54,448 nucleotides of DNA, taken from Kiritimatiellia bacterium (GTDB lineage Bacteria; Verrucomicrobiota; Kiritimatiellia; RFP12; UBA1067). The notes under the pieces were generated by a model, which was not told the origin of the DNA, ran no database searches, and saw nothing but the letters and a program-made list of their open reading frames with translations. The position numbers were made by a program, and so were the translations under genes. The stretch is taken from positions 1 through 54,448 of the forward strand of contig JAFTCL010000019.1 of NCBI GenBank assembly GCA_017454745.1, read 5' to 3'. This document shows positions 29,353-54,031 of the stretch, one piece after another; position 1 is the stretch's first letter; each line of letters begins with the position of its first letter.

Positions 29353-29368
29353 GCCGGGGTCATAATTT

Positions 29369-29998: not shown

Positions 29999-30044
29999 AT
30001 GCGCAGGTAAATTCTAGACCAGCCAAACGGGAAAACTTGTCGCC

Positions 30045-33179: not shown

Positions 33180-33203
33180 CCCCAATAATCGAAAGGGCAG
33201 ATA

Positions 33204-34022: not shown

Positions 34023-34045
34023 ACTCATTTGACAAAGGAAGTGCT

Positions 34046-34708: not shown

Positions 34709-34722
34709 AATTGGAGAGTATC

Positions 34723-35802
34723 ATGAACCGCAAAGAATTGCTGAAGAAACAGTATGAGGAGCGTGTCGCAAGCCCAGAGGGAGGGTCGCGGCCGATGCCA
34801 GTCGCAAAAGGTCGCCCCCCCCGTCCCTATCGGAGAAGCGCATTCTGGCGTTGGTTTTGGCTGTTGTTTCTGATAACTTTACTGGGCGGTTTCTTCCATT
34901 GGCGGGAAGATGTCTTCGCGGTGTGGAACCGGATGTTCGACAAGGACGGCGGCAACCGGTTGTTCGGCTCCGTTCCGGAGAACAATGCCATCGGCGACCC
35001 GTATCCGACCACCCAACTCGGCCATTCGGCCGGCAGCTTGCCGGAAACGGTGGTTCGCCAGTATTTTGTGCCGAGCGAGGCGGAACTGGAGCAGTTGTTC
35101 GAATACGTCCGTTCGTCGCCGCACGTCAAGGAGAACCTTCAATACGCCAACACGATGAAATCCGTGCGTTTCTTCTACCTCGGGGACGATTCCACCGTCA
35201 ATGCATTTGCGTCACTCCGCAAGCTTGACGAGCGGAGTGACGAACTTACCCGCGTGATCTGTTTCTTTGGCGGCGCGGCGAGGTTCTCCCGGGTCGCGTC
35301 GCTGGCAGTCGCTGCGGAGCTGGACGGTGACAAGGGTGCCACCGCTAGGCTGATTAATGCGCTTACGCCTGCCGATTGCGGTAAAATGGATGACGAAGCC
35401 GTGGTCAGGATCGCGAACGCGGCGGGATTAGGCGCGGCTTTAGCTACTGATGCGACCAGAACCAAAGCTAAGTCCGTATCCGCCGGGATGATTCTCGGCA
35501 TCTTGGCTCATGAGTCTGGACACCAATCGTTGGGGCACGTTCTCAATACTGGTCGTAGTGAAAATCTTGAAATCTCCCGTAACCAGGAACGCGAAGCAGA
35601 TTTGTTTGCTTCGAGTGTCATTTCCGCCAGCCCATTTGGTGAGTATATGTTTGCCGGGACGCTTTTCTGGTATTATGCGCTGGCTACTCAAGAGGGCGGT
35701 AAGCAGGAAAACACACATCCCCTCTCAAAAGAACGGTTTGAAAATCTCGTTCGCTCCAACCCCGAGAAGGCTGCTGCAATGGGTGTTTCGCTCAAGGAAT
35801 AG
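34723..35802 (+). CDS. Membrane-anchored HExxH zinc metalloprotease, M48/HtpX-like
   Basis: N-terminal TM (FWRWFWLLFLITLLGGFF). HESGHQSLGH with a downstream ...EREAD... glutamate, as in the M48/M56 arrangement. Start at the ATG at 34723 after a ggagag RBS. Confidence 0.5.
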   Translation: MNRKELLKKQYEERVASPEGGSRPMPVAKGRPPRPYRRSAFWRWFWLLFLITLLGGFFHWREDVFAVWNRMFDKDGGNRLFGSVPENNAIGDPYPTTQLGHSAGSLPETVVRQYFVPSEAELEQLFEYVRSSPHVKENLQYANTMKSVRFFYLGDDSTVNAFASLRKLDERSDELTRVICFFGGAARFSRVASLAVAAELDGDKGATARLINALTPADCGKMDDEAVVRIANAAGLGAALATDATRTKAKSVSAGMILGILAHESGHQSLGHVLNTGRSENLEISRNQEREADLFASSVISASPFGEYMFAGTLFWYYALATQEGGKQENTHPLSKERFENLVRSNPEKAAAMGVSLKE

Positions 35803-35897: not shown

Positions 35898-38800
35898 ATG
35901 AGTGATTTTGACAATGACAAGACGCTTATAAACAATGCAATCAATGTTGAGTCTTTAGACAAAGGCAGAACAATTCCCGTCAAAGAGGTAGAATCGTCAG
36001 TTCTGGGGCGTATCGATCAGTATGAGCTGCATAAGGAACTCGGCGGCGGCGGGTTCGGCACGGTATATTTGGCTCGTGACACCGTGGGGCACCGCGAGGT
36101 TGCGGTGAAGGGGTTGCCGCCTTTAGTCCAAAGCAATCGCGAGGAACTTGAAAATATCCGCACCAACTTCGCGCTGGTGCAGGGGCTTCACCACCCGAAC
36201 ATTGCCGCCGCACTCGTGCTGCATCCAGCCAAGGATGTCATCTACAACTCCGAGGACACGCGGCGAAAACTGCGGGTACTCTCCGGGGAGACCCTGTTGG
36301 TGATGGAGTACGCGCCGGGAGTCACACTTTCCAAATGGCGCAAGCAGTTCCACGGCAGCAAAGTCCCGCTGGAAATGGCTTTGGAAATCGTGCGCCAAGT
36401 CGCGGAGGCGCTTGATTATGCGCATTCCCAAAACATTATCCACCGCGATGTCAAGCCGTCAAACGTTGTTGTGGAAACCAAGCCTGACGGATCGGTCGCG
36501 GCGCGGGTGCTGGACTTCGGGCTGGCGGCGGAGATCCGCTCTTCAATGGGGCGGTTCTCAAAGGAGGTCCGCGACACCTCCGGCACCCGCCCCTACATGG
36601 CGCCTGAGCAATGGCGGGGCGAAAAGCAGGGCCCCGCTACCGACCAGTACGCGCTGGCGGCGATGTTTTTCGAGTTGCTGACGGGTGAAGTCCCATTCTC
36701 TTCGGTTTTCGATTGCGGCGACCCTATGGTGATGATGGTGACGGTAACCGCGAGCCCGGTGAACATCCCGGACGATCTCCCCAAGCCCATCCGGAGCGCG
36801 TTAGCCAAAGCGCTGGCAAAGAAGCAGGAGGAGCGTTTTCCCTCCTGCGGAGAGTTCGCGGCCGCATTGGGCGCGAGGGCGGCTATTCATGCGGCATCGA
36901 AACCGCGTCTGGGAAAGGCCGGAGTTTCGCCCCGCAAAAAGTCTGTCTGGCTGGTAATTCCCGCTGTTCTTGCTTTGCTGGGCGGCGGTTATATTGTCTT
37001 TGCCAGACGTCAGGCGGAAAAGGCTAAACTAGAGATCGAGAAAAGCAGTGCGTTTGCGCTGGAGAGCGAGATGTCGCTCGCGCTGAAGGTCGTTAAAGAT
37101 AAGAGGCACGACCCGGGGCAGGGTTTCAGGGATCGGATAAAGGCTTTGGAAAAATATTATCTCGCCGGCAAAGCCGCGCTTGACGCCAGAGAGTATCCGG
37201 TCGCCCTTAATAACCTGAGCCTGGCCCGCACGGCCGCCGAATGGATTAAAAGCAACGCTGTGTTCCGCGCCGACGCGCTTAGCGAACGGGAGTCGGCTGA
37301 GGCCGGAGCCAGAAATGCGGCTGCTGCCAAAGCCGATGAGTTGGACGCTGCCGGTTACGCAACGGCCACGAATCTTTTTGTAAACGCCTTGCAACAGTTC
37401 GAGTCCGGGAAGTTTATGGTGGCAAAGGCGGAATTCTCCAAATCTTTGGCCGCATTCAAAACGAGCGTCGTGTCGGCAAATAAAGAAGCCGAACGGCGGA
37501 GGCTTGAGAAACGTAAAGCCGATACCGCCGCTGCTATCGCCGCATTTGAGGCTGAACCGCCGAATTGGAACGATGGGGTGCGTTTGGCTCAGACCGCTGA
37601 TCGTAATGACGCGTCCATCCAGTTTTATCTTGGGGTTTGTTGCGATTTCGGTTACGGCGGAGTATCCAATGATCCTTCTGAAGCGGTTAAGTGGTATCTT
37701 AAAGCGGCAGAGCAGGGGCACAAGGTCGCGCAATTCAATCTAGGCGTCTGTTATTCCAAAGGCAGCGGGGTTCAGGAAGACCAGACCGAAGCGACAAAAT
37801 GGTATTGCAAAGCGGCTATGCAGGGATACCGCGAGGCGCAATTCATTTTGGGTAAAAGATATTTCAATGGTATCGGTGTGGATAAGGATGAAGCCGAGGC
37901 GGTCAAGTGGTATCGAATGGCGGCGGATCATGCACATCGGGAGGCGCAGTTTAACCTTGGTGTATGTTACGACAACGGGTCTGGGGTGGAGAAAGACGAG
38001 GCTCAAGCGGTCGAGTGGTACCTTAAAGCCGCTGAGCAAGGCGAGGCTGCGGCACAGTACAATCTTGGCGTTAGCTATGCCAACGGGCTGGGTGTGGAGA
38101 AGAATTTGTCTGAGGCTGCAAAATGGTATCTGAAGGCGGCTGAACAGGGCCACCGTACAGCGCAGTTCAACATTGGCGTCTATTACGACAAGGGTTATGG
38201 GGTGGCAAAAGACGAGGTTGAGGCGGTCAAATGGTACCGCAAGGCTGCCGAGCAGGGGGATGCGTCGGCGCAGTTCAACCTGGGTGTATGCTATGCCAAT
38301 GGACAGGGGATAAAAAAAGACGAGGTTGAGGCGGTAAGATGGTACCTCAGCGCCGCCGGGCAGGGGGATGCGTCGGCGCAGTTCAACCTTGGCGTTAGCT
38401 ATGCCAACGGTCAAGGGGTAGCTAAAGACGATGCGGCGGCGGCCAATTGGTACCGGAAAGCTGCTGTGCAGGGCCACCGGGCCGCACAGTTCAATCTTGG
38501 CGTATGTTACGATAACGGTGAAGGCGTGGTGAAAGACGAGGCCGAGGCGGTAAAGTGGTATCGCAAAGCGGCTGAGCAGGGAGACGTGTCGGCGCAGTTC
38601 AACCTTGGCGTGAGTTATGACAACGGTCAGGGAGTTCAGAAGGACGAGGCCGAAGCGGTAAAATGGTACCGTAAAGCGGCAGAGCAGAATTACCGGGCTG
38701 CGCAGTTCAGTATGGGGCTGTGTTATGCCAATGGACGCGGGGTGGCGAAAGACGATGTGGCCGCGGCGAATTGGTTCCGCAAGGCTGCCGAGCAGGGGCA

Positions 38801-40823
38801 TTACGGCGCGCAGTTTTATTTGGGTGAAAGTTGTGCCAAAGGGCGGGGTGTGCCCAAGGATGAGGCTATGGCGGTTGAGTGGTATCGCAAGGCCGCCGAG
38901 CATGGGCACCGGGACGCGCAATCCAATTTGGGTTTATGTTATGCCAATGGGTTGGGAGTGGAAAAAAACGAAACCGAGGCGGTTAATTGGTTCCTTAAAG
39001 CTGCGGATCAGAATGATACGGTGGCATTGTTCAATTTGGGCGAATGTTACTCCCACGCCAAAGGGGTTCAAAAAGACGATTTCGAGGCTGCAAAGTACTA
39101 CCGCAAAGCCGCCAATCACGGACACCGTGAGGCTCAGTATAATTTGGCCGTATGTTACGCTAACGGACAAGGTGTTCAGAAGAGCGATTCCGAGGCTGCT
39201 GTTTGGTATCGCAAAGCGGCAGAACAGAGGCATAGGGAAGCCCAGTTGAATTTGGGCATTTGCTACGACAATGGCCTTGGTGTCCGCAGGGACGAGTCCG
39301 AGGCGGTCAAGTGGTACCGCTTGGCGGCGGAAAAGGGCAGCGATACGGCGGAGTTCAATCTGGGCGTGTGTTATGCAAACGGCCTTGGTTTGCAAAAGGA
39401 TGAAAACAAGGCGTTTGAGTGGTATCGCAAAGCGGCTGAACAGGGGAACCGGACTGCGCAGTTCAATCTTGGCGTTTGTTACGATAACGGTCGCGGAGTG
39501 GTTAAGGATGAAGCCGAGGCGGTCAAGTGGTACCGCAAGGCTGCCGAGCAGGGCCATTTGATGGCGCAGTTCAATCTCGGCCTGTGTTACGCCAACGGGT
39601 TGGGGGTGCCGAAAGACGAAGCCGAGGCGGTTAAATGGTACAGCAAGGCGGCTGAAAAAGGGAACGTGGTCGCCCAAAGAAATTTGGGGGGTTGTTATGC
39701 CGGCGGGAAAGGCGTTCCTAAGAATGAAGCCGAGGCGGTGAAGTGGTACCGCATGGCGGCGGAAAACGGTGACGCTCAAGGACAGTTTCTGTTAGGCGAT
39801 GCTTACGAGTCAGGCAAAGGGGTTGAAAAGGATTCCGCTGCCGCGAACCTGTGGTACGACAAATCCGCCGCTCAGGGAAACCGGTTGGCAAGAAAAGCTT
39901 TGGTGCGAATCAGCGGGGCCTCCGGTGTTACTTATGAGTCGGCACTGTCTATGTTAAACATCAATCTGGATGCCGTGTTCACTGCCGATAAGGTCGTCGA
40001 TGTCCCGGCCGGCGCGGATTTGGAGAAAACGGTAGAAGACTGCCCGGACGGGGCCACGTTGCGTCTGGCTGCCGGAACTTATGCGATTTCCGGCGCCAAA
40101 CAGCTTAGTTTCTCTAAGAACCTTAAAATCACCGGTGTTTCTCCGGAAAGTACCCATATCTATGGTAAGTTTTGTTCTTATAATCCATCGGATAAAAGCG
40201 GTACGGTTCTGGTTGTCGAGAATCTCGCGTTTGAGTTCGAGAAAACCGGTGACAATAGCGATTATGGCGTCTGGGGCGCAGATGGCGGGGCCCTCGCGGT
40301 CAACCACTGCCGTTTCGCCAATTGCGGTATAAGGGTCTCCGCTAAATCAAGAGCCGTTCTTGCCGACATTGCGGTTGACAATGCCAAATGGGAGATTGAT
40401 GTTTCAGAAGCGGCCAAGGCGGTTGTCCTCAACGCGCAACTTACAAACACAACTGGACATTTCATTATTGGATTCAAGAATTCGCGTGTCTTTTGCGAGG
40501 ATGTTGTGATGTCAGGAGGAGTTGATGCCGGAATGTTTGCGCGATATGGTGGCAGCCAATGGTTTCTGCGCTGCTGTTACGTCCGGAATCTTATGCCGCC
40601 AAAATATGCTTCGTCCGGGATTGGCGTTACAGCCGGCTCGAAAGTAAAAGTCTATCTGGATAGCGTTACCTTTGAGAATTTGACTGGCGCGCCGGTTGAC
40701 AATTCTGGCACATGCGTTTACCGCAATCTGACCGTAAGACAGTGCGGAGAAGACTTGAAAGGAAACGGCAGTTACCTGAAGCAGGACGCCCCGATTCCCT
40801 TGCCGGAGGGTTTCTTCCGTTAA
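35898..40823 (+). CDS. Receptor-type Ser/Thr protein kinase (kinase 1): N-terminal Hanks kinase, one TM helix, ~22 Sel1 repeats, C-terminal right-handed beta-helix-like domain
   Basis: LGGGGFGTVYLARD...VAVK (Gly loop and Lys), HRDVKPSNVVV catalytic loop, DFGLA, TRPYMAPE. TM SVWLVIPAVLALLGGGYIVFA. Long array of AxQFNLGVCYxNGxGVxKDxxEAVKWYRKAAEQG Sel1 repeats. C-terminal NxxG/parallel-beta-like segment. Confidence 0.8.
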   Translation: MSDFDNDKTLINNAINVESLDKGRTIPVKEVESSVLGRIDQYELHKELGGGGFGTVYLARDTVGHREVAVKGLPPLVQSNREELENIRTNFALVQGLHHPNIAAALVLHPAKDVIYNSEDTRRKLRVLSGETLLVMEYAPGVTLSKWRKQFHGSKVPLEMALEIVRQVAEALDYAHSQNIIHRDVKPSNVVVETKPDGSVAARVLDFGLAAEIRSSMGRFSKEVRDTSGTRPYMAPEQWRGEKQGPATDQYALAAMFFELLTGEVPFSSVFDCGDPMVMMVTVTASPVNIPDDLPKPIRSALAKALAKKQEERFPSCGEFAAALGARAAIHAASKPRLGKAGVSPRKKSVWLVIPAVLALLGGGYIVFARRQAEKAKLEIEKSSAFALESEMSLALKVVKDKRHDPGQGFRDRIKALEKYYLAGKAALDAREYPVALNNLSLARTAAEWIKSNAVFRADALSERESAEAGARNAAAAKADELDAAGYATATNLFVNALQQFESGKFMVAKAEFSKSLAAFKTSVVSANKEAERRRLEKRKADTAAAIAAFEAEPPNWNDGVRLAQTADRNDASIQFYLGVCCDFGYGGVSNDPSEAVKWYLKAAEQGHKVAQFNLGVCYSKGSGVQEDQTEATKWYCKAAMQGYREAQFILGKRYFNGIGVDKDEAEAVKWYRMAADHAHREAQFNLGVCYDNGSGVEKDEAQAVEWYLKAAEQGEAAAQYNLGVSYANGLGVEKNLSEAAKWYLKAAEQGHRTAQFNIGVYYDKGYGVAKDEVEAVKWYRKAAEQGDASAQFNLGVCYANGQGIKKDEVEAVRWYLSAAGQGDASAQFNLGVSYANGQGVAKDDAAAANWYRKAAVQGHRAAQFNLGVCYDNGEGVVKDEAEAVKWYRKAAEQGDVSAQFNLGVSYDNGQGVQKDEAEAVKWYRKAAEQNYRAAQFSMGLCYANGRGVAKDDVAAANWFRKAAEQGHYGAQFYLGESCAKGRGVPKDEAMAVEWYRKAAEHGHRDAQSNLGLCYANGLGVEKNETEAVNWFLKAADQNDTVALFNLGECYSHAKGVQKDDFEAAKYYRKAANHGHREAQYNLAVCYANGQGVQKSDSEAAVWYRKAAEQRHREAQLNLGICYDNGLGVRRDESEAVKWYRLAAEKGSDTAEFNLGVCYANGLGLQKDENKAFEWYRKAAEQGNRTAQFNLGVCYDNGRGVVKDEAEAVKWYRKAAEQGHLMAQFNLGLCYANGLGVPKDEAEAVKWYSKAAEKGNVVAQRNLGGCYAGGKGVPKNEAEAVKWYRMAAENGDAQGQFLLGDAYESGKGVEKDSAAANLWYDKSAAQGNRLARKALVRISGASGVTYESALSMLNINLDAVFTADKVVDVPAGADLEKTVEDCPDGATLRLAAGTYAISGAKQLSFSKNLKITGVSPESTHIYGKFCSYNPSDKSGTVLVVENLAFEFEKTGDNSDYGVWGADGGALAVNHCRFANCGIRVSAKSRAVLADIAVDNAKWEIDVSEAAKAVVLNAQLTNTTGHFIIGFKNSRVFCEDVVMSGGVDAGMFARYGGSQWFLRCCYVRNLMPPKYASSGIGVTAGSKVKVYLDSVTFENLTGAPVDNSGTCVYRNLTVRQCGEDLKGNGSYLKQDAPIPLPEGFFR

Positions 40824-40880: not shown

Positions 40881-43800
40881 ATGGACGATTTTTACGACGA
40901 CAGGTCTTTGAGGGAGAATGCGGCGGAGCCGGAAAAGTCATTCGGCAGCGAAAATACGCTGGTTGAACGGCAGATTTTGGGCCGCATCGACCAGTACGAG
41001 CTGATCCGCGAGCTGGGCGGCGGCGGGTTTGGCACGGTCTATCTGGCTCGGGACACCGTTTCCGGGGTGGAGGTGGCGGTGAAGGGGTTGCCGCCGGCGA
41101 TCAAGAACAATCTGGAGGAGTTGGAGAACATCCGGGCCAACTTCGCGCTGGTGCAGCGGTTGCACCACCCGAACATAGCGGCGGCTCTGGTTCTGCACCA
41201 GGCGGCCGCCGTCGATTACTCCGACGCCGGCACCCGCGACAAACTCCGGGTCTTGCCCGGCGAGACGCTGCTGGTGATGCAGTACGCGCCGGGCGTGACG
41301 CTCTCGCAGTGGCGCAAGCAGTTCCCCGGACGCAAGGTGCCGCTCGAAAAGGCGCTGGACATCGTGAGCCAGATCGCGTCAGCGCTGGATTACGCCCATT
41401 CGCAGAAGATCATCCACCGCGACATCAAGCCGTCAAACGTGGTGGTGGAGACCCGCGCCGACGGCTCGGCGGTGGCGCGGATACTGGACTTTGGGCTGGC
41501 GGCCGAGGTGCATTCATCGATGTCCCGCATCTCCAAAGAGGTTTGCGATGTCTCCGGCACCCGGCCCTACATGGCCCCGGAGCAGTGGCTGGGGCGCCGG
41601 CAGGGGCCGGCCACCGACCAGTACGCGCTGGCGGCGCTGTTCCACGAGTTGGTCACCGGCGAGGTTCCGTTCTCATCCGTGTTCGACACCGGCGACCCGG
41701 TGGTCATGATGAACGTCGTGGGGCGCGAAGTTTTCGCGGCGGCCCCGGAATTGCCCAAACCAGTGCGTCTGGCTTTGTGCAGGGCGCTGGCCAAAAACCC
41801 GGAGGAACGTTTCGCCGCCTGCGGCGACTTTGCCGCAGCGTTGGGCGGAGCAAAGGCCAAACCCGCCGGCGGACACCGTCTGCTTAAGGGCGTGGCGGCG
41901 CTCTGGGCGGCGGCGGCGGTTGCCGCCGCCGGCGTTACGGCTTGGCAATGGCACGCCCGGCGCGATGCCGCCCGTAGGGAGGCGGAGAATCTTGCTCGCG
42001 CTGAATACGCGGCAGAGACGAACCGGCTGGCCGAAGCGGTTTCGAAAGCCGCGGCGACGGCCGCCGCCGCGTGGAACGGGACCGAGCCTTACCGCCTTGA
42101 CCCGGAGGGACTGGAAACGCAGCTCTCGGAACTGAGCAACCTGTGGGCCGGAGTCTCGGCGGAGTGGCGGCCCGACCCAGACAACGCCGCCGTTTCGCTG
42201 TCCAACCGCTTGGCGGAGGTTTCCGCCGCCGCCGAAGCCATTGCCTCAGTTTCGGCGAAAATGAAGCCGCTGAGCGAGGCAAGGGAAAGGGTACGGCTTG
42301 AACGCCGGCGCGAGCTTGACGCACGGGCGAAGGAAGAGGCCGCCAAGGATGCCGCAAAGCGAGCCAAAGAGGCACAGGAACGCGCCGCCGAGCTGGTGCG
42401 GCTCAAGACACGGCTCAACATCAAACGATCGGACGCGGAGGCCAAGATGAGGGAATTGGACGGCTACCGCGCCGCCCCGGAGGGCCTGGAGGGGCGCATC
42501 GCGTCCGCCGACGGCCAGTGGAAGACGCTGAAGGCGCTCCCGGAGCCGGAGTCGCTCGAACAGGCAGAGACGGCGCTGGACATGGCGGACAAGGCGGAGA
42601 CCCAAATCTCTCTTGACCTCGCGTGGCTCCGGGAAAACAAGGCCGGGCGCGACGCCGCCAAGGCCGCAGTCGGCGAGATTTCCGCCATTTTGCGCGGTGA
42701 CGCGGCCGACTTCAATGCGGAGAAATACGCCGCCGGGCGGTACGGCGAGGCGGCTCGGCTGCGCGAGGCCGGCGACGCCGCCTTCAAACGCGGCGATTTC
42801 GCGGCGGCCGGCAAGTCGCTCGCGGCGGCGCGGGAGAAGTTCGCTGATGCCGCGCGGGAGGCAAGGGATTTTTGCGTCAAGACCAGGGTGGAGGCCGCCC
42901 GCGAGTATTTCAAGGCCGGAAAGTGGAAGGAGTGCATAGCGGAGGCGGATAAGGCTCTGGAGTGGGCGCCGGGAAATGATGCCGCGGCACGCCTGAAGAA
43001 GGATGCTGAAGACCACCTTGTGCCGACGGCGGAGCTGGCCGCTACGGTTGACGGGCGCGAAGTGCAGGCGGAGGTGACGGAGGCTGGCCGCGGGCCCCGC
43101 CGCACGCCGGCGGAACTTGGGCGGCTAACGCCGAACGGCAGGATCGGGCCGTTCAAATTCACCCATGCCGAGAACGGCAGGCGTTACGAGGGGACGATTG
43201 ATGAGCTAACGGTCGACTGGCGCGGCCCTAAACGGCTTGAGTGCAGGCTTCAGGAACGTAAAGAACCCAGAGCCGGCGACGTTAAGACCGTCATCATGCC
43301 GGGCGGCGCGGCAATGGAGATGGTGTGGTGCCCTGCGGGCAGCTTTATGATGGGGAGCGACAATGGCGGCAGCGACGAAAAGCCGGCTCACCGGGTGACG
43401 ATATCCAAGGGGTTCTGGATCGGGAAGTACCCGGTGACGCAGGCCCAGTGGGCGTCGATGTACAATAAGCTGGGGCCGATAACCGGATCAAGCGCCGAAC
43501 CGTCATGCTTCAGCGCATCGGGCGGCGGGAAATCCGCAGTGTCCGGCATGGACACCTCGCGGTTCCCGGTGGAAAGGGTTTCCTGGGATGACTGCGACCA
43601 AATGGTCGAGTTGCTTAACCGCGCCCAAAGCGAGTGCGTCTTTGCGCTGCCGACGGAGGCGCAGTGGGAGTACGCGGCCCGCGGCGGCCCGCTGTCCAGA
43701 GGCTACACCTACAGCGGAGGCAACTACTTAGACCGGTTGGGCTGGTACTACGAAAATTCCGGCAGGGGGCGGCTTGACGAATCGGACTGGGATGTAAAAA

Positions 43801-44111
43801 AACTCGATTCTAACGGTTGCCGTACCCACCGGGTGGACGAGAAAGACGTTGGCAACGAGCTGGGCATTGTAGGAATGAGCGGCAACGTCTGGGAGTGGTG
43901 CCGGGACTGGTACGATGGAGACTATTACTCGCGTTCGCCGGAAACCGATCCCTGCAACACGGCATCGGGCGGTAACCGGGTGTTGCGCGGCGGCGGCTGG
44001 AGCGCCCATGCGGGGGGCTGCCGCTCCGCGTACCGCTACAGGTACGGGCCCGGCCTCCGCGTCTACGACTTCGGCTTCCGCCTCGTCTGCTCCGCAGGAC
44101 CGCGCGAGTGA
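40881..44111 (+). CDS. Receptor-type Ser/Thr protein kinase (kinase 2), the DGR variable protein: kinase, TM, Ala/Glu/Arg-rich coiled coil, C-terminal FGE-sulfatase (C-type lectin fold) domain carrying the VR
   Basis: Kinase motifs as in kinase 1 (HRDIKPSNVVV, DFGLA, TRPYMAPE). TM LWAAAAVAAAGVTAW. FGE domain MVWCPAGSFMMGS...KPAHRVTISKGFWIGKYPVTQAQW...NVWEWCRDWY...RVLRGGGWS...GFRLVCS. The last ~49 codons are the VR. Confidence 0.85.
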   Translation: MDDFYDDRSLRENAAEPEKSFGSENTLVERQILGRIDQYELIRELGGGGFGTVYLARDTVSGVEVAVKGLPPAIKNNLEELENIRANFALVQRLHHPNIAAALVLHQAAAVDYSDAGTRDKLRVLPGETLLVMQYAPGVTLSQWRKQFPGRKVPLEKALDIVSQIASALDYAHSQKIIHRDIKPSNVVVETRADGSAVARILDFGLAAEVHSSMSRISKEVCDVSGTRPYMAPEQWLGRRQGPATDQYALAALFHELVTGEVPFSSVFDTGDPVVMMNVVGREVFAAAPELPKPVRLALCRALAKNPEERFAACGDFAAALGGAKAKPAGGHRLLKGVAALWAAAAVAAAGVTAWQWHARRDAARREAENLARAEYAAETNRLAEAVSKAAATAAAAWNGTEPYRLDPEGLETQLSELSNLWAGVSAEWRPDPDNAAVSLSNRLAEVSAAAEAIASVSAKMKPLSEARERVRLERRRELDARAKEEAAKDAAKRAKEAQERAAELVRLKTRLNIKRSDAEAKMRELDGYRAAPEGLEGRIASADGQWKTLKALPEPESLEQAETALDMADKAETQISLDLAWLRENKAGRDAAKAAVGEISAILRGDAADFNAEKYAAGRYGEAARLREAGDAAFKRGDFAAAGKSLAAAREKFADAAREARDFCVKTRVEAAREYFKAGKWKECIAEADKALEWAPGNDAAARLKKDAEDHLVPTAELAATVDGREVQAEVTEAGRGPRRTPAELGRLTPNGRIGPFKFTHAENGRRYEGTIDELTVDWRGPKRLECRLQERKEPRAGDVKTVIMPGGAAMEMVWCPAGSFMMGSDNGGSDEKPAHRVTISKGFWIGKYPVTQAQWASMYNKLGPITGSSAEPSCFSASGGGKSAVSGMDTSRFPVERVSWDDCDQMVELLNRAQSECVFALPTEAQWEYAARGGPLSRGYTYSGGNYLDRLGWYYENSGRGRLDESDWDVKKLDSNGCRTHRVDEKDVGNELGIVGMSGNVWEWCRDWYDGDYYSRSPETDPCNTASGGNRVLRGGGWSAHAGGCRSAYRYRYGPGLRVYDFGFRLVCSAGPRE
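43960..44106 (+). repeat. DGR variable repeat (VR), 147 bp, at the 3' end of kinase 2
   Basis: Aligns gap-free with 45254-45400. All ~21 internal mismatches fall at positions where the TR has adenine. Confidence 0.85.
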
Positions 44112-44146
44112 AGGGGCGGAGCGAAGATGGGGCTGCGGGCCAGGCG

Positions 44147-44163
44147 GCCCCCGCGGAGCGGGG
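44147..44163 (+). other. GC hairpin downstream of the VR (7-bp stem cccccgc/gcggggg, 3-nt loop), candidate DGR homing hairpin
   Basis: Perfect inverted repeat read directly, ~40 bp 3' of the VR end. Position and GC-rich stem resemble the hairpin required for efficient homing in the Bordetella phage DGR. Confidence 0.5.
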
Positions 44164-44268
44164 GTGCGCGGAGCGCAAGCGGGCCGCAGCTAAGGCACCT
44201 GGGACATTGGCGGGACGCGCGACCATTGGCGGGGGTTTTCAACGGGAGTTGGCATTGGGTTTTGCAAC

Positions 44269-45540
44269 ATGAAAAGAATCGGATGGGTATTGGGGCGGAT
44301 TCTGGATCCGGACAACCTGCGGCTCGCCTTCTGGAAGGCGAGCCGGGGCAAGCGCCACCGCGCCGACCAGCGCGAATGGCAGGATTCCCTTGAAGAGCGG
44401 ATCGAGGAATTGCGCATGGGTATCGAGAACCTAACGTACCCGGTTGGAGAATACCGGCGGTTCACAATTTACGAGCCGAAGGAGCGGGAAATCTGCGCGG
44501 CGGCGTTCGGCGAGCGGGTGCTTCACCACGCGATCATGAACATCTGCGAGCCGTATTTCGACCGCTGGCTGGTTGCCGACACTTTCGCGTGCCGCAAGGG
44601 AAAGGGGCAGTCCGCTGCGGTGGACCGGGCGGCGCACTTTGCTCGGCACCACGAATGGTTCATGAAGTGCGACTTCAGGAAGTATTTCGACTCCATCCCG
44701 CACGATGGGGTACGGCGGATGCTGGAACGCCGTTTCAAGGATCCCGGACTTTTGGAGTGGTTCTGGCGGATAGTCGGCGCTTACGAGAAGACACCGGGGC
44801 GCGGGGTACCAATCGGGAACCTGACCAGCCAGCATCTGGCAAACCTGTATCTGGACCCGCTTGACAGGATGCCGCGGTTTGGCTGTGGCTACGTGCGCTA
44901 CATGGACGATTTCGTGTTTTGGGCAGACCGCAAGGAGACGCTGCTAGAGTTGCGGAGGCGTGTCTCCGATTTTTCGGGGGAGACGCTTGGCTTGGAGCTG
45001 AAGCGCGAACCGTTTATAAACCGTACCGCCGCCGGAATGGAGTTTTTGGGCATGCGTATCTACCGCAGCGCCGTGTACCTGTCGCGCCGAAGCCGCGTCC
45101 GCTATGGGCGTAAAGTCCGGGCCTGCGAGAGGCTTTTTGAGAAAGGGGAGCTGTGCGAGGCGGAGCTGCAGCGCCGGGTCACGTCGCTCACGGCGTTTGT
45201 CTCGGGCGCGGATTCCCTGGTATGGCGAAGACACAATTTGGCAGTCCGCGAGGGGCATCGGGCGATAACCGGGTGTTGCGCGGCGGCAGCTGGAACAACC
45301 ATGCGGAGAACTGCCGCTCCGCGAACCGCAACAGGAACAAGCCCGGCAACCGCAACAACAACAACGGCTTCCGCCTCGTCTGCTCCGCAGCACCGCAGGA
45401 CAGAACTCCGCGCGGTCCCCGCGGGCGGCCGGATCCCGTGCTATGGGACAAATTCATCCCTCCGCCCGGACGCAAGTAGCGGCGCCGAAAGTTTCCGGGC
45501 GGAATCCATTTCCGTTGGAGGGGCGGGACAATGCAGATAA
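44269..45540 (+). CDS. DGR reverse transcriptase
   Basis: RT motifs ICAAAFGERVLHHAIMN, FACRKGKGQSAA, KCDFRKYFDSIPH, YVRYMDDFVFWAD (YxDD), as in DGR RTs such as Bordetella phage Brt. The RT-like portion is ~330 aa. The ORF then continues in another frame across the TR to 45540 without a stop, so the true C-terminus is uncertain. Confidence 0.85.
   Translation: MKRIGWVLGRILDPDNLRLAFWKASRGKRHRADQREWQDSLEERIEELRMGIENLTYPVGEYRRFTIYEPKEREICAAAFGERVLHHAIMNICEPYFDRWLVADTFACRKGKGQSAAVDRAAHFARHHEWFMKCDFRKYFDSIPHDGVRRMLERRFKDPGLLEWFWRIVGAYEKTPGRGVPIGNLTSQHLANLYLDPLDRMPRFGCGYVRYMDDFVFWADRKETLLELRRRVSDFSGETLGLELKREPFINRTAAGMEFLGMRIYRSAVYLSRRSRVRYGRKVRACERLFEKGELCEAELQRRVTSLTAFVSGADSLVWRRHNLAVREGHRAITGCCAAAAGTTMRRTAAPRTATGTSPATATTTTASASSAPQHRRTELRAVPAGGRIPCYGTNSSLRPDASSGAESFRAESISVGGAGQCR
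45254..45400 (+). repeat. DGR template repeat (TR), 147 bp
   Basis: Adenine-rich (about 33 A). Read in the target frame it has many AAC codons (NRNRNKPGNRNNNNGFRLV). Identical to the VR at all non-A positions. The 3' ends diverge (TR ...ctccgcagcaccgcaggac vs VR ...ctccgcaggaccgcgcgag), as expected for IMH*/IMH. Confidence 0.85.
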
Positions 45541-45950
45541 GCACGTTTTTCGTTCCTTTGGCGGATGACGGGCGGGCGCAAGACGATTTAAACTCGTTCC
45601 TGCGCGGGCGGAGAGTCCTGAAGGTCGGCGAGGCGTTTGCCGGCAACGGCTGGGCGTTTTGCGTGGAGTGGCTTGAGGAAGGCGCGTACGTCCGGGACGG
45701 GCGACAGTCGCAACGGCGGGTGGATTACCGCGAGGTGCTGGAGCCGGCGGTTTTCGAACGGTTTGCGAAGCTGCGGGAGCGGCGCAAGGCGATTGCCGCA
45801 GAGGACGGGGTGCCGCCGTATATGGTGATGACCGACGCGCAGATGGCCGAGGCCGCCAAGCCTGAAAGGCTGACGGCTGAAGTGCTTAAGGCAATCGAGG
45901 GATTCGGTGAGGCAAGGCTAAAAAAATACGGCGAACGGATCATGGCGTGA
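45531..45950 (+). CDS. DGR accessory protein with a C-terminal HRDC domain
   Basis: VFERFAKLRERRKAIAAEDGVPPYMVMTDAQMAEAAKPERLTAEVLKAIEGFGEARLKKYGERI is a textbook HRDC sequence. Start overlaps the end of the RT ORF. Confidence 0.7.
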   Translation: MQISTFFVPLADDGRAQDDLNSFLRGRRVLKVGEAFAGNGWAFCVEWLEEGAYVRDGRQSQRRVDYREVLEPAVFERFAKLRERRKAIAAEDGVPPYMVMTDAQMAEAAKPERLTAEVLKAIEGFGEARLKKYGERIMA

Positions 45951-45994
45951 TTCGCCGTGCGGGAAAATATGCGGCAAGGTATGGGGGCGATGCG

Positions 45995-48900
45995 ATGGAC
46001 GACTTTGGCGATGACAGGACTTTGAGGAATAATGCGGCGGAGCCGGAAAAGTCATTCGGCAGCGAGAAGACGCTGGCCGGACGGCAATTTCTGGGCCGCA
46101 TCGACCAGTACGAGCTGATTCGCGAGCTGGGAGGCGGCGGGTTCGGCACGGTCTATCTGGCTCGGGACACCGTTTCCGGGGTGGAGGTGGCGGTCAAAGG
46201 GTTACCCCCAGTAATCAAAAACAGCGCGGAGGATCTTGAGAACATCCGCGCCAACTTTTTGCTGGTGCAACGTTTGCACCATCCTAACATTGCCGCCGCG
46301 CTTACGCTGCATCCGGCGAGTCGCGTAGAATACTCTGACAACGCTACGCGGGAGAAACTGCGCGTTCTGTCCGGCGAGACGCTGCTGGTTATGCAGTATG
46401 CGCCGGGTGTGACGCTTTCGCAGTGGCGCAAACAGTTCCCGGACCGCAAGGTGCCGTTGGAAAAGGCGCTGGATATCACCAGTCAGGTTGCCTCGGCACT
46501 GGATTACGCGCACAGGCAGAAAATCATCCACCGCGACATCAAGCCGTCAAACGTGATGGTGGAGACCCAACCTGACGGTTCGATAGTAGCACGGGTGTTG
46601 GATTTTGGTTTGGCGGCGGAGATACGCTCATCGATGGGGCGTATTAGTCGTGAAGTCCGCGACACTTCCGGTACTCGCCCCTACATGGCACCAGAACAGT
46701 GGCAGGGCGAAAAGCAAGGCCCGGCCACCGACCAGTACGCGCTGGCGGCGATGTTTTACGAACTGGTCACCGGTGAGGTCCCCTTTTCCTCGGCTTTCGA
46801 TTGCGGCGACCCTATGGTAATGATGGTGACGGTAACCACCCGCCAGGCAAAAATCCCCGGTAGTTTGCCCAAGCCGGTTTGCGTCGCGTTGGCGAGAGCG
46901 CTGGCGAAAAAGCCGGAGGAGCGTTTTGCGTCCTGCGGCGATTTTGCCGATGCATTGGATGGGAAAAGGGTAAAGCCTATTTCCTCCTGCCGTCGCAAAC
47001 GCCCCTTGCTGAAATGGCTTGCCGCGCTTTATGCCGCTGCGGCGGTGGCCGCTGGTGTTATAACGGTTTGGCAATGGAACATCAAGCGTGAGGCAGCCAA
47101 AGCCGCCGCGGAAATGATGGTGCGGGAGGCAGAGGAAAATATAAAGCATCATGTATACGAGCTTAAGGGCAAAGCAGGCAAATGCCGTGACGCTAGCAAT
47201 CGTGAGGAGTGGCAGTCATGGGAATTGTTCAAAGACAAGGCAAATGATTTGGATATTGCGTTTAGGGCGGGAGAATCGGCTTTTGAAAAAAATGATTTCC
47301 CGGCGGCAAAAGATCAGTTCACTAAAGTAAGTGATATATGGGAATGGTTAGTTTCAAACAAAACCGCCAGAACTAAAGCGGTTGACGCTCGTGATGCGGC
47401 AGACGCGGCTCGAAAATCCGCCGCTGCCGCCAATGCTAGCAAATTTTCTGTCAATGAGAATGCTCAAGCGGACGAGATTTTTAAACGTGCAGAGAAATCA
47501 TTCACACAAGGGTTATTCGGGGACGCAGAAATTACTTTTGGCAACGCAAGAACTGCTTATGACAGGGCGACGGAACTTGCAAATGTGGAAATTGCGCGGC
47601 GTGCGGAGGCCGAACGTGTCGCTGAGGCGGAAAGACTAGCAGAAATAGAAGCTGCCAATAAGGCCAGAGCGGAAAAGGAACGAAAAATTCGTGAAGAGAA
47701 CGAACGTATTGCCGCAGAAAAAAAAGCAGAGGAGGAACGTAAAGAAAGAAAAATCGTAGAGGGTAGGAAGGCCAACCGTAAAATCATTGATCTTTTCAAA
47801 GCGGATAAATGGGACGAGGGGTTTGCGTGTATTGCGAATGCCTTTGAAGACGATCCCGAACTTGATTATCAGCTTGGTAGAGCTTATTCAACGGATTATA
47901 AACGCCGTAACTATTTGACAGCGCGGGAATACTTCCGGAAAGCGTCAAAAAGAATGCAAATTCGGCAGGAAGAAATCGAAAAGGTGGAGGAAGAGGCGCT
48001 TTTTGAATTAGTTAGCAAATGTCGTTTGGAAGAGGTTAAAGCGGAAATCAACGTTTCAACGCCATATCTTTCTTTGTCGCATGACGGGTACACATTGATG
48101 CACCATGCCGCCCATAAACGCGACCATGTGTTTTTGGAGTATCTAAATTCACTCGGACATTCTGTGAATGCATCGTCTGGTACAACCGGGAAGACTCCGC
48201 TTTTTTACGCATGCGCAAATACCAATCGAGCCGATTCCCTTGATTGCATTGATTGGCTTTTGTCACACGGATCAGACTGTAATGTTCGCGTTAAATCAGG
48301 ATCTGAAGTAGGCAAATCGCCAATTTTCCATGCTAGGGATGTTAATGCCTTCAAACGTCTTTTGCAAGCGGGGGCAAGTGTCGATGTAGTGGATGGCTTG
48401 GGTAGAACCATATTGCACGAGTTGGCACAATATTCAGATGATGCCGAACTGATAAGTTACGCTGTGGATAAGTGTCGCGGAAAAATCAATTCCCTTTCCA
48501 ATATTGGGGAAAGTGTAGTACATAGCGCGATAGGCATCTCTCATTTCAATCCTGATGTGCTCGATGTTCTACTTAAACATGGGGCAAAAGCCGATGCGGT
48601 TATTGGCGGAAACGGTTCGGATGCAGGTTTTGCGCCAATCCACAAAGCAATATATTGGATGTATCCCAAAGCCGTGGAAAGGCTGGCAGATTACGGCGTG
48701 GATGTCAATCAGCGTGTTGGAGACAGTAATAAGTTTTTTCATGGGTTTAGTTCAATACAACTTTTGGCAAGAAAAGGATGGCATCGTGACAATGATCAAG
48801 AGGTCAATGCAGTGGTGAAGACACTGGTTAAACATGGCGCAGACATAAACGAACATTGCAAAGGGTTTTATTCTGGCGAATATTTGATGTTTGAGGGATA

Positions 48901-49705
48901 TACCCCTTTACACATTGCAAGCGAATCTAGCAATGCTGAACTCGTGTCCGCTTTGATAGACAATGGAGCAAATTTAGAGGCAACTGATGCAAACGGGGCA
49001 ACAGCACTCTATCTTGCATGCACAGAGTATGGTATTGACGAAAGAACTATGAACATAATAAAAATTCTACTCCGGCGCGGCGCAAACCCGAACGTGGCCG
49101 ACAAGACTGGTAAAAAGCTTTTGGATGCCGTAAAGAATGCCGATGTGAAGAAACTGCTTCTGGACGCGGCAGGGCTGCGCGGCAACGTTGCGCTTGGCAA
49201 TGTACAACGGGAAAACGGAATACAGAACCAAACCGACAAGACTCGGCAGGTAACGGAAATTGCGTTAAAAGCATTCGCGGCAGGTAATTGGGATGATGGT
49301 ATAAAGCTGTCGAAGCAAGGCGATGAAACTGACCCTCGGTTGCAATACTGGCGCGGCTATTGCGCTGAGAAGGGAATCGGAGAAGCAACCGACGAGAAAA
49401 AAGCGGCGCAGCTCTACCTTCAGTCTGCGAACGGCGGTTGTGCAGAGGCGCAGCATCGTTACGGGCTGATGTGTTTCATAGGTCGGGTCGTGGAGAGAAA
49501 TTTAGGTGAAGCGATGCGCTGGAATGAGAAAGCAGCTGAACATGGGAATGTCAAAGCGCAAAAGTTTCTCGCAATACAGTGGGATGGCGGGCATTCAGTC
49601 CCGCGCAATGAAGAAAAGGCTGTCAAATGGTACCGTCTAGCCGCCAAGAATGGGGATGAGGAAGCAAAAAAATGGTTGCAAAACAAAACAATCGGTTTGA
49701 ACTAG
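45995..49705 (+). CDS. Receptor-type Ser/Thr protein kinase (kinase 3): kinase, TM, coiled coil, ankyrin repeats, C-terminal Sel1 repeats
   Basis: N-terminal ~330 aa nearly identical to kinase 2 (MDDFGDDRTLRNNAAEPEKSFGSE...GRIDQYELIRELGGGGFGTVYLARDTVSGVEVAVKGLPP). TM LAALYAAAAVAAGVITVW. Ankyrin-like TPLHIA / GATALYLAC units. Three or more Sel1-like units at the end. Start at the ATG at 45995 by analogy with kinase 2. Confidence 0.8.
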   Translation: MDDFGDDRTLRNNAAEPEKSFGSEKTLAGRQFLGRIDQYELIRELGGGGFGTVYLARDTVSGVEVAVKGLPPVIKNSAEDLENIRANFLLVQRLHHPNIAAALTLHPASRVEYSDNATREKLRVLSGETLLVMQYAPGVTLSQWRKQFPDRKVPLEKALDITSQVASALDYAHRQKIIHRDIKPSNVMVETQPDGSIVARVLDFGLAAEIRSSMGRISREVRDTSGTRPYMAPEQWQGEKQGPATDQYALAAMFYELVTGEVPFSSAFDCGDPMVMMVTVTTRQAKIPGSLPKPVCVALARALAKKPEERFASCGDFADALDGKRVKPISSCRRKRPLLKWLAALYAAAAVAAGVITVWQWNIKREAAKAAAEMMVREAEENIKHHVYELKGKAGKCRDASNREEWQSWELFKDKANDLDIAFRAGESAFEKNDFPAAKDQFTKVSDIWEWLVSNKTARTKAVDARDAADAARKSAAAANASKFSVNENAQADEIFKRAEKSFTQGLFGDAEITFGNARTAYDRATELANVEIARRAEAERVAEAERLAEIEAANKARAEKERKIREENERIAAEKKAEEERKERKIVEGRKANRKIIDLFKADKWDEGFACIANAFEDDPELDYQLGRAYSTDYKRRNYLTAREYFRKASKRMQIRQEEIEKVEEEALFELVSKCRLEEVKAEINVSTPYLSLSHDGYTLMHHAAHKRDHVFLEYLNSLGHSVNASSGTTGKTPLFYACANTNRADSLDCIDWLLSHGSDCNVRVKSGSEVGKSPIFHARDVNAFKRLLQAGASVDVVDGLGRTILHELAQYSDDAELISYAVDKCRGKINSLSNIGESVVHSAIGISHFNPDVLDVLLKHGAKADAVIGGNGSDAGFAPIHKAIYWMYPKAVERLADYGVDVNQRVGDSNKFFHGFSSIQLLARKGWHRDNDQEVNAVVKTLVKHGADINEHCKGFYSGEYLMFEGYTPLHIASESSNAELVSALIDNGANLEATDANGATALYLACTEYGIDERTMNIIKILLRRGANPNVADKTGKKLLDAVKNADVKKLLLDAAGLRGNVALGNVQRENGIQNQTDKTRQVTEIALKAFAAGNWDDGIKLSKQGDETDPRLQYWRGYCAEKGIGEATDEKKAAQLYLQSANGGCAEAQHRYGLMCFIGRVVERNLGEAMRWNEKAAEHGNVKAQKFLAIQWDGGHSVPRNEEKAVKWYRLAAKNGDEEAKKWLQNKTIGLN

Positions 49706-52708: not shown

Positions 52709-54031
52709 ATGATAGAACTTAAGCGACAGTTTTACGATTTTCTTGTCGGCTGGAAAGCCGAGAAGGGGCGGGAGTGTCTTCTCGTCAAAGGGGCGCGTCA
52801 GATCGGTAAGACGTTCATAATTGAGAAATTCGGGCGAGAGAATTATGATAGTTTCATTGAGATCAACTTCATTGAGGAGCCGGACTTCTGTGCGGTCTTC
52901 AATGGGAGCCTTGATGCTGATACAATCTGTGCCGGCATTTCAGCGATACGACCGGATGTGCGTTTCGTCCCGGACGGGACGTTGATTTTCTTGGACGAGA
53001 TACAGGAATGCCCAAACGCTAGGACGGCTTTAAAATTCCTTGCTCAGGATGGCCGTTATGATGTTGTGGCATCAGGATCGCTCCTTGGCATCAAATATAA
53101 GCGCAAGGATCGGGAACCGAAATCCATTCCGGTGGGCTTTGAACGCCAGATTACAATGCATTCGCTGTCATTTGAGGAATTTCTTTGGGCAAAAGGATAT
53201 GACCGCGGACAGATCTGGCGGCTTCGCGAATATTTTCTTCGGCGCGATCCGGTGCCAGAGGTTGCCAACGGAAAGTTCCATGACCTGATGCGTGAGTATG
53301 CCGTAGTTGGCGGTATGCCCGAGGTGGTAAGCGGTTACATCGAGAATCGCCATTTCGGTGACGTGCAGCGGGTGCAGGAAAAAATCCTTTCCTCCTATAT
53401 TGATGACATTCACAAATACGCCTCCACCGTTGACATCCCCAAAATTGAACGGTGTTTTCGCGCGATGCCGTTAATTCTCGCCAAGGAAAACCGCAAGTTT
53501 AAGTATTCCGAAGTCGAGAAGGGGGCATCGGCGCGCAAATATCTCTCCAGCGTTGACTGGTTGAAGGATTCCAGCCTTGCTTCTCTTGCCGAATGTGTCA
53601 ACGTAGCATTGACGGGGCTATCCGGGTATATTAAGGAGGATTGGTTCAAGCTCTATCTTTCCGATGTCGGACTCCTTTGCGCGTCATACGGGATGTTGAC
53701 GAAGCGTCAAGTGTTGGACGGATCGCTCAAGGGGAGTGTCAAAGGCGGTATATACGAAAATCTTGTCGCTGGGATTCTGGCGCGAAACGGAATTCCGTTG
53801 ATCTATTACCGGAAAGACGAAGTTGAAATGGAGTTTGTTGTTGAGACAGGCGACGGAGTCGTTCCCGTAGAGGTGAAGGCACAGTCGGGAAGGACGCTTT
53901 CTCTCGATAAAATGCTTCAGGAAGGTCATATCCCATACGGTTACAAACTGACTGGCGGGAACATTGGAGTAAGCGGCAAGAAAATCACCATGCCGCACTA
54001 TATGGCGATGTTCATCACCTCTGCGACATGA
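52709..54031 (+). CDS. AAA-family ATPase with a DUF4143-type C-terminal domain (predicted ATP-binding protein)
   Basis: Walker A GARQIGKT, Walker B LIFLDEIQ, ~440 aa, typical architecture of the widespread 'ATPase, AAA+ superfamily' / DUF4143 proteins. Confidence 0.65.
   Translation: MIELKRQFYDFLVGWKAEKGRECLLVKGARQIGKTFIIEKFGRENYDSFIEINFIEEPDFCAVFNGSLDADTICAGISAIRPDVRFVPDGTLIFLDEIQECPNARTALKFLAQDGRYDVVASGSLLGIKYKRKDREPKSIPVGFERQITMHSLSFEEFLWAKGYDRGQIWRLREYFLRRDPVPEVANGKFHDLMREYAVVGGMPEVVSGYIENRHFGDVQRVQEKILSSYIDDIHKYASTVDIPKIERCFRAMPLILAKENRKFKYSEVEKGASARKYLSSVDWLKDSSLASLAECVNVALTGLSGYIKEDWFKLYLSDVGLLCASYGMLTKRQVLDGSLKGSVKGGIYENLVAGILARNGIPLIYYRKDEVEMEFVVETGDGVVPVEVKAQSGRTLSLDKMLQEGHIPYGYKLTGGNIGVSGKKITMPHYMAMFITSAT

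Follow-up and report, generated by a model that had tools for sequence, protein, structure and literature searches.

A chromosomal HRDC-class diversity-generating retroelement proposed to diversify a receptor-like kinase in a Kiritimatiellae bacterium

Diversity-generating retroelements (DGRs) that contain an HRDC gene were catalogued by Wu 2018 as 'Architecture C', with 14 examples in 11 gene orders and a kinase-containing target among those listed (PMC5758913). Accessory genes of the HRDC type, targets with an FGE-type domain and fusions to kinases have each been catalogued before and are not surprising to a specialist. For phage DGRs, efficient homing is known to need a hairpin downstream of the variable repeat (VR), with a 7-10 bp stem and a GRNA tetraloop, located 4-34 bp from the VR (PMC3240598). 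The motifs RT-1 to RT-19 were reported by Weinberg et al. 2017 from the vicinity of reverse transcriptase (RT) genes; the authors tied RT-10 to the spacer of phage BPP-1 and guessed that other motifs serve other DGRs, and where that paper treats these motifs, only RT-10 is assigned, and RT-17 and RT-18 carry no DGR assignment (PMC5737381). When Handa et al. later surveyed the RNA elements of DGRs, they covered only Avd-containing DGRs (10.1101/2023.10.23.563531). Here we analyze a stretch of 54,448 nt ("the window") from a Kiritimatiellia bacterium (assembly GCA_017454745.1, contig JAFTCL010000019.1, positions 1 to 54,448 of the forward strand), which contains a locus with an HRDC gene inside the cassette and which we assign by its sequence to the HRDC-type DGRs of Architecture C. 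We are highly confident that this locus is a chromosomal DGR of the HRDC-accessory class in a Kiritimatiellae bacterium, with receptor diversification as its proposed mechanism. Support for this view spans the pair of template repeat (TR) and VR, differences restricted to adenines, the type of RT, the accessory gene, the architecture of the target, polymorphism among assemblies, and conserved RNA and hairpins.

The two repeats were found by a repeat search and by direct pairwise comparison of the copies. The region contains a single long direct repeat, 43961-44112 versus 45254-45405 (offset 1293; the target and cassette features are all on the + strand). Its core of 137 nt (43961-44097 and 45254-45390) aligns without gaps and has 21 mismatches, all of which fall at adenines of the downstream copy: 21 of the 33 adenines were changed, compared to none of the 104 non-A positions (Fisher p=1.2e-16). 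A preliminary description, made from the sequence alone, had reported this adenine specificity for gapless 147-bp segments at 43960-44106 and 45254-45400. Both the gapless repeat and the restriction to adenines held over the core. The start of the VR had to be moved to 43961, the register pairing 43960 with 45254 matching at only 46 of 191 positions, and the last 10 nt of the 147, which lie past the core, contain two non-A mismatches (44098 G/C and 44105 C/G), in keeping with the 3′ boundary described below.

The VR (43961..44097) corresponds to the last 46 codons of the target gene and consists of a variable part (43972-44071) and an invariant G+C-rich 3′ part (44072-44097), the latter being 26 nt identical to the TR. 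The TR (45254..45390) reads ...ANRNRNKPGNRNNNNGFRL in the target frame and has 33 adenines and 12 AAC codons, in line with the A-rich, AAC-filled repeat described earlier. Almost all of its adenines (31/33) occupy codon positions 1 or 2. Twenty codons are variable, only one of them could become a stop codon, and approximately 1.3e18 protein variants are possible. At the 3′ boundary, a segment resembling the initiation of mutagenic homing (IMH) sequence (44072..44111) terminates with the target stop codon. The 14 nt that follow the 26-nt identity contain five VR/TR differences, three of them non-A (44098, 44105 and 44108), which is consistent with the form expected of an IMH on the VR side and an IMH* on the TR side; if BPP-1 is taken as the model, the segment would play the role that IMH/IMH* have there. 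A 25-mer from it occurs only twice in the window, and an A-tolerant scan of both strands of the window returned the known pair and no second VR or remote target.

The exact HRDC protein of this locus is encoded on contigs of several other assemblies, and three alleles could be compared, those of the window, L001 (ERZ27256819) and L002 (ERZ28653690). The latter two contigs cover the window from 35531 to their own ends, with approximately 18.9 kb shared. Outside the VR, L001 differs from the window at one position and L002 at three, and the sole non-VR differences among the assemblies are 42831 C/A, 49714 T/G and 50636 T/G. Inside 43972-44071, L001 has 23 and L002 16 differences from the window, all at TR adenines. 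Altogether, 25 of the 33 TR-A positions are polymorphic among the three assemblies, as against 0 of 104 non-A positions, and the TR is identical in all three. The alternative VR bases are non-A and differ by assembly (e.g., G/T/T, G/C/A and T/G/T). In addition, the first base of a Logan contig (SRR12529377) is 44072, immediately past the variable part; a break at the VR edge is the behavior of a heterogeneous VR in a short-read assembly graph. No more VR alleles were detected in a degenerate-pattern scan of JGI metagenome contigs, and the 90% protein cluster of the target comprises the three known alleles only. Because the surrounding 19 kb has 1-3 single-nucleotide polymorphisms (SNPs) versus 16-23 differences in the approximately 100-nt VR, the VR changed over a period in which its surroundings stayed nearly constant. 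The DGR is apparently active, with VR polymorphism confined to TR-A sites.

The RT domain (44269..45252) is 328 aa long. Its best match among solved structures in PDB is Bordetella bRT (8ub7; E=3e-36, 128 bits), residues 8-315 aligning to 9-311 of 328, and bRT leads by 66 bits over group II and retron-type RT structures (62 bits or less, E=3.5e-16 or weaker). The motifs IGNLTSQ ([LIV]GxxxSQ, motif 4) and YMDD are invariant in 26 relatives. These comparisons support an RT of the DGR type, closest to bRT, as the preliminary description had proposed from the YMDD box and DGR-type motifs. RT homology stops at approximately residue 320, and the open reading frame (ORF) then runs without a stop across the TR to 45540. 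The earlier placement of the TR inside the RT ORF was thus right for the ORF (44269-45540), and the part that spans the TR is no conserved part of the protein. We considered the C-terminal tail (residues 329-423) as a functional extension and ruled it out by comparison with relatives, in which all three frames are used across the TR or the ORF terminates right behind the RT domain; the tail therefore exists only because the TR directly adjoins the RT gene.

The accessory gene (45531..45950; 139 aa) follows the TR and encodes an HRDC domain (Pfam PF00570, E=8e-16). Both its presence and its class as a known DGR alternative to Avd had been pointed out beforehand, the latter agreeing with the catalogue of Wu 2018 (PMC5758913). 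The protein has an N-terminal beta-alpha-beta-beta domain (aa 1-50), a linker, and the HRDC domain (aa 66-139). Beginning with the start codon, the gene shares 10 nt (45531-45540; ATGCAGATAA) with the end of the RT ORF that reads through the TR.

Relatives were collected by scanning one genome per species, which yielded more than 560 RT relatives, and 80 loci were read. The closest RT relatives (57-64% identity) are in metagenome-assembled genomes of Kiritimatiellae and Lentisphaerae from animal guts, and others were found in Verrucomicrobiota (including Akkermansia), Planctomycetota, Bacteroidota and Desulfobacterota. NCBI assigns the identical proteins to a Kiritimatiellae metagenome-assembled genome; the contig label 'XIEF21' and the nearest relatives, which are from rumen, suggest by their names an origin in the ruminant gut. 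A full-length homolog of the 139-aa HRDC protein adjoins the RT in nearly all of the 80 loci, and TR/VR pairs with A-biased mismatches were present in approximately 55, the TR starting 0-30 nt past the RT domain. The order target-RT-TR-accessory, which had been called the less common one, is indeed present in the window and is a minority in the clade; the norm with which it has to be compared is target-HRDC-RT-TR, the commonest order in the clade, and the window order is common to its eight closest relatives only. A third order, target-TR-HRDC-RT, as in Treponema, was also present (L011). Kinase-FGE fusions recur across several phyla in the clade. Several loci are organized differently: in L011, L031, L039, L041 and L045 the TR, together with the RNA 3′ of it that is described below, lies apart from the RT and the matching VR is kept. 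Such displaced TRs either precede the HRDC gene or are kilobases away, in one case on the opposite strand. Duplicated RT-HRDC-TR cassettes were observed in L053 and L070.

The target gene (40881..44111; alternative ORF start TTG 40866) encodes a protein of 1076 aa (NCBI protein MBQ9430732.1) with a kinase domain (approximately 40995-41819; Pfam Pkinase, E=2e-39), in which the VAVK, HRD, DFG and APE motifs are all intact when read in translation, and an FGE-sulfatase domain with C-type-lectin fold (approximately 43314-44087; Pfam E=3.5e-47) that holds the VR at its C-terminus. This agrees with the kinase gene with a VR at its 3′ end that had been described before. A hydrophobic segment (approximately 41880-41950; residues 334-352) gives a single hydropathy peak at aa 334, and a long Ala-rich/coiled region lies between it and the FGE-sulfatase domain. 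Over its C-terminal 230 aa, the protein matches both the DGR variable protein TvpA (2y3c, E=2.6e-19), from Treponema denticola, and true formylglycine-generating enzymes. The layout implies a predicted single-pass receptor-like Ser/Thr kinase, with a cytoplasmic kinase and an extracytoplasmic hypervariable lectin-fold domain.

The protein tails of the RT relatives share short motifs in any TR frame, which pointed to nucleotide-level conservation downstream of the TR. The region 3′ of the TR from 56 loci was aligned by MAFFT, without being fitted to any structure. In the relatives it consists of a hairpin at the TR end, GAACCGG, hairpin P2, CAAA, a long stem P3 and an inner hairpin P4. P3 encloses an internal loop, 5′-(A/U)(G/A)GUA-3′ opposite 5′-GAA-3′, and the U and A of GUAG are invariant. 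The stems predicted by RNAalifold are P2, P3 and the base of P4, and each of the 15 pairs shows double-sided changes. In the 56-locus alignment, 90.3% of cells were paired, compared to 63% in shuffles and 36-54% with slid partners, and the covariation score was 0.69 versus 0.24 in shuffles. A covariance model with 42 seed sequences, including the window, gave 77 matches in 81 sources, most of them on the RT strand, one per RT copy and directly 3′ of the TR. Exceptions include a minus-strand match in L039, a second match in L022 (6660-6791) and a match in L052, the last two with no recognizable TR upstream. Among the model matches (73 relatives tested), 90.6% of cells were paired, with a covariation score of 0.85; pairing in shuffles was 58-63% over both tests. 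At the five loci with displaced TRs, the RNA match is still directly after the AAC-rich TR that has its own VR. The RNA stays with the TR away from the RT and is therefore a companion of the TR rather than of the RT gene.

In the window, the model match is at 45382-45508 (67 bits, expected by construction, the window being in the seed), and the covariation-supported structured domain occupies 45391..45503. It comprises P2 (45434-45438/45444-45448) followed by CAAA (45449-45452), P3 (45461-45470/45494-45503 plus 45472-73/45491-92), the internal loop (AAGUA 45474-78 opposite GAAA 45487-90) and P4 (45479-86). P1 (45392-45396/45412-45416) is from the window's own constrained fold only and lies outside the covariation-tested pairs. 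Covariation is the evidence for this RNA, single-sequence folding being uninformative. The xGUA/GAA loop can be read as having the sequence signature of the loop E/sarcin-ricin (bulged-G) module. Pairing of the GUAG region with the 3′ end of the TR was checked by eye in printed sequences of relatives and proved inconsistent. By analogy with the BPP-1 spacer RNA, the domain may provide the platform on which the RT, probably with the HRDC protein alongside, binds and priming takes place. Relatives with the common gene order have a terminator-like T-run after the RNA element, and the window has none; a promoter/terminator scan of 43800-46200 gave counts at chance level.

No Rfam family reached its gathering score in the window or in 35 relatives, and at E up to 10 the window had chance-level matches only. 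The element of L074 aligns full-length, below threshold, to RT-18 and RT-17; scores against RT-17 (RF03020) and RT-18 (RF03021) were 18 and 14 bits, far under the gathering scores of 41 and 40 (best relative, 18.2 versus 41.3 bits). Like our element, RT-17 and RT-18 lie beside RT genes and have a hairpin, an A-rich linker, a long stem, a UAGUA/GAAA internal loop and an inner hairpin; they differ in that the window RNA and its relatives are below the gathering score. The shared architecture suggests a related class rather than membership.

Downstream of the VR, an outer stem (44132..44190) encloses two GGA-loop hairpins, hairpin 1 with 8 bp (44147-44154, loop GGA, 44158-44165; GCCCCCGC-GGA-GCGGGGGT) and hairpin 2 (44166-44169, GGA, 44173-44176; GCGC-GGA-GCGC). 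The DNA fold of 44132-44190 has z=-3.1 and none of 200 shuffles was as stable, in accordance with the hairpin listed earlier after the VR. In the VR flank as a whole, the trimmed 67-nt structure alone was significant, and the full 199 nt after the VR gave z=-0.9. By eye, the eight closest relatives all have a G+C-rich hairpin with a GGA/GGAT loop 40-110 nt after the VR, with differing stem sequences; an automated scan lists a GGA-loop hairpin in only some of the eight. In more distant relatives, the post-VR hairpin has a GAGGGACGA loop. With an 8-bp G+C stem located 49 nt from the VR, the window hairpin may be regarded as a variant of the phage DGR hairpin. In addition, CGGAGCG occurs at 44117, 44153 and 44168, three times within 60 nt of the target stop codon. 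In the 150 nt past the VRs of relatives (L007-L086), the sense strand has 59 copies of CGGAG[CT] (shuffle mean 8.5, maximum 17), an approximately ten-fold enrichment that the other strand does not share; the motif was picked after seeing the data. GGA-loop hairpins were 3.7-fold enriched in both donor RNA and target flank. The idea that one protein reads these hairpins in donor RNA and target was set aside as a lead only, the strict definition being satisfied in 11-15 of 53 loci.

These features can be arranged into a proposed mechanism. One transcript would carry the RT ORF, the TR and the structured RNA 3′ of it. The RT would bind this transcript, probably together with the HRDC protein, and copy the TR to complementary DNA (cDNA), placing random bases opposite adenines. 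The cDNA would then replace the VR, with the 3′ limit set by the invariant IMH-like segment and with assistance from the GGA-loop hairpins after the stop codon. As an outcome, up to approximately 1e18 variants of 20 codons could be generated on the ligand-binding face of the C-type-lectin/FGE ectodomain, and the cell population would thereby sample many ligand specificities coupled to phospho-signaling. Self-priming on the 3′ RNA, the roles of the HRDC protein, the IMH-like segment and the hairpins, and a biological ligand are modeled on phage BPP-1. To our knowledge, mechanistic work (cDNA priming, RNA structure and cryo-EM) has all been done on Avd-type DGRs. A more specific model, which we consider tentative and rather doubtful, is that HRDC-type DGRs form an Avd-independent ribonucleoprotein of their own. 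In this model, the covarying RNA 3′ of the TR, a relative of RT-17/RT-18, would bind the RT and the HRDC protein and prime cDNA synthesis, and CGGAG-type loops, which are present in the RNA of many relatives and in the post-VR repeats, would let the same protein tie donor to target.

Several points weigh against the HRDC-type DGR proposed here. The evidence for variation is from assembled contigs, not reads, and sets no rate or timing of diversification; the samples behind the three assemblies may be identical or may overlap (L002 bears the name of SAMN15829944), and the three VRs may be co-existing haplotypes or consensus mosaics, not three clonal alleles. Priming and HRDC function in HRDC-type DGRs would be extrapolations from BPP-1. 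The GGA loops of the window are outside the GRNA consensus of phage DGRs (PMC3240598), its P4 hairpin is vestigial, and the single-sequence fold of its TR 3′ RNA is no better than shuffles (z=-1.1). With only three assembled alleles to compare, one could view the locus as a relic whose VR differences reflect old strain divergence rather than ongoing mutagenic homing. We consider this very unlikely: the RT, HRDC and target ORFs are intact and keep the catalytic motifs, the TR does not vary while the VR has accumulated 16-23 differences against 1-3 SNPs in 19 kb, and the short-read contig breaks at the VR edge.

Slightly less probable still is an assembly artifact, in which collapse or mixing of TR and VR produced differences that would be uninformative on activity. 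In favor of such an artifact, the two repeats are 85% identical at a distance of 1.3 kb, and a number of short contigs have their ends within or close to one of them. However, mixing of TR and VR reads could add only A, the TR base, to the VR, and mis-assembly cannot explain the VR differences because the alternatives are non-A bases varying between assemblies; moreover, the non-A sites are all untouched and none of the three assemblies shows a change in the TR. Finally, the second copy might be a pseudogene fragment of an FGE domain beside an unrelated retron, group II or defense RT, and the locus not a DGR. The RTs of relatives are annotated in their source as 'retron-type reverse transcriptase', NCBIfam gives weak group II and retron matches, and PADLOC gives generic RT/DRT matches. 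Yet the NCBIfam scores are far under the cut-offs (group II, 96.5 versus 300 bits; retron, 46.9 versus 235 bits), bRT is the best solved relative by the margin given above, Rfam returned neither a group II intron RNA nor a retron ncRNA family, and ordinary divergence cannot confine 21 mismatches to the adenines of a single copy (p=1e-16), which makes this explanation extremely improbable. Neither indels nor non-A substitutions at a similar rate were present in the core, and in the comparisons with solved structures and NCBIfam families the RT did not group with group II or retron RTs, findings that the preliminary description had named as arguing against a DGR.

The target of the proposed DGR is the middle of three paralogous single-pass kinases, whose kinase domains are 74-76% identical in DNA to that of the target. 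The flanking paralogs (35898-40823 and 45947-49705) have one transmembrane segment each, at approximately residue 340. The ectodomain of kinase 1 contains 21 Sel1 repeats and a beta-helix, and that of kinase 3 ankyrin and Sel1 repeats; no VR was found in either by the A-tolerant scan of the window. A short contig (L004; ERZ28018698, 1114 bp) tracks the window through the HRDC gene and past 46192 is nearer the N-terminus of kinase 2, the target, than kinase 3 (46192-46383 versus 40881-41269; 95%); it represents either a recombinant strain or an assembly chimera between paralogs. Upstream, a co-oriented cluster (25659-35802) encodes an SPFH/Band 7 protein with zinc ribbons, an FHA-domain protein, a Snf7/ESCRT-III-like protein (match below the Pfam cut-off) and a zinc-ribbon protein, as well as an AAA+ ATPase with IetA-like PADLOC matches, four family-less ORFs and an M48/U49(Lit)-like peptidase. 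The FHA domain beside Ser/Thr kinases suggests one signaling module. Downstream genes encode a PrsW protease and an AAA_14 + DUF4143 ATPase (52709-54031) of the PADLOC candidate defense family PDC-S01 (448 bits). The G+C content steps to 63-67% at 41000-46000 from 44-55% around it, and G+C at third codon positions is 0.80 in kinase 2, 0.77 in the RT, 0.74 in the HRDC gene and 0.51 in kinase 3. The DGR cassette and its target may have a history different from that of their neighbors. As far as gene content can tell, the neighborhood would fit the published idea of DGR-diversified sensors in conflict and signaling systems (PMC7159879, PMC10907252).

As a DGR, the element is ordinary, and its value lies in representing the HRDC class, about which least is known. 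Our analysis goes past the preliminary description in the evidence for current variation, in the orderly and widespread HRDC clade, and in the covarying RNA tail of the TR with its putative loop-E-like core. The locus is a natural DGR example caught varying, with three assemblies alike but for 1-3 SNPs and the programmed TR adenines. It is also a compact, reconstitutable system (the RT, a 139-aa HRDC protein, and the TR with a structured tail of approximately 110 nt) in which mutations could be aimed at defined sites, such as the U and A that never vary in GUAG, the GAA strand, and the hairpin loops of GGA. The features of the clade make the Avd-independent mechanism approachable, and our findings suggest that the orphan Rfam motifs RT-17 and RT-18 may gain a biological role. 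With a hypervariable-ectodomain kinase beside two fixed paralogs and an FHA/SPFH/AAA+ cluster, the locus offers a tractable case of programmed receptor diversification coupled to phospho-signaling in a gut anaerobe.

Among known systems, the TvpA DGR of Treponema denticola and the HRDC-containing DGRs of Architecture C (PMC5758913; Nimkulrat et al. 2016, PMC4891356) resemble the window element in that an HRDC gene replaces or accompanies Avd, in their FGE-type C-type-lectin target with a C-terminal VR, and in being chromosomal rather than phage-borne. The Treponema DGR differs in gene order (TR-HRDC-RT, as opposed to target-RT-TR-HRDC) and in that its target is a lipoprotein, not a receptor kinase. 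Compared to the 14 HRDC DGRs of Wu 2018, the present scan revealed a large, orderly clade that spans Kiritimatiellae, Verrucomicrobiota, Planctomycetota, Bacteroidota and Desulfobacterota.

The BPP-1 DGR (mtd-avd-TR-brt) shares with the window element the adenine-specific TR-to-VR transfer, the catalytic and template-contacting RT residues (IGxxxSQ and YMDD) and a structured RNA 3′ of the TR, as well as, in form, the invariant G+C-rich 3′ end of the VR with a diverged TR counterpart and a G+C-rich hairpin after the VR. In contrast to BPP-1, the window cassette is without Avd and its TR follows rather than precedes the RT; the hairpin loop is GGA(T) instead of GRNA and sits 49 nt from the VR, the range in phage DGRs being 4-34 nt (PMC3240598); the architecture of the 3′ RNA is different, with a putative loop-E-like xGUA/GAA loop and no match to Rfam RT-10; and the target is a cellular kinase instead of a phage tail fiber. 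The DGR-diversified kinase/conflict sensors (Wu 2018, target composition b12; Kaur et al. 2020, PMC7159879; Dore et al. 2024, PMC10907252) also combine an N-terminal signaling domain with a C-terminal hypervariable C-type-lectin/FGE domain, and the window neighborhood likewise includes defense-associated genes (IetA-like AAA+, PDC-S01 and Lit/M48-like peptidase). Reports of these sensors are mainly from multicellular cyanobacteria, Thiohalocapsa and STAND/vWA systems, whereas the host of the window element appears to be a gut Kiritimatiellae bacterium and its target a single-pass receptor kinase between two non-variable paralogs.

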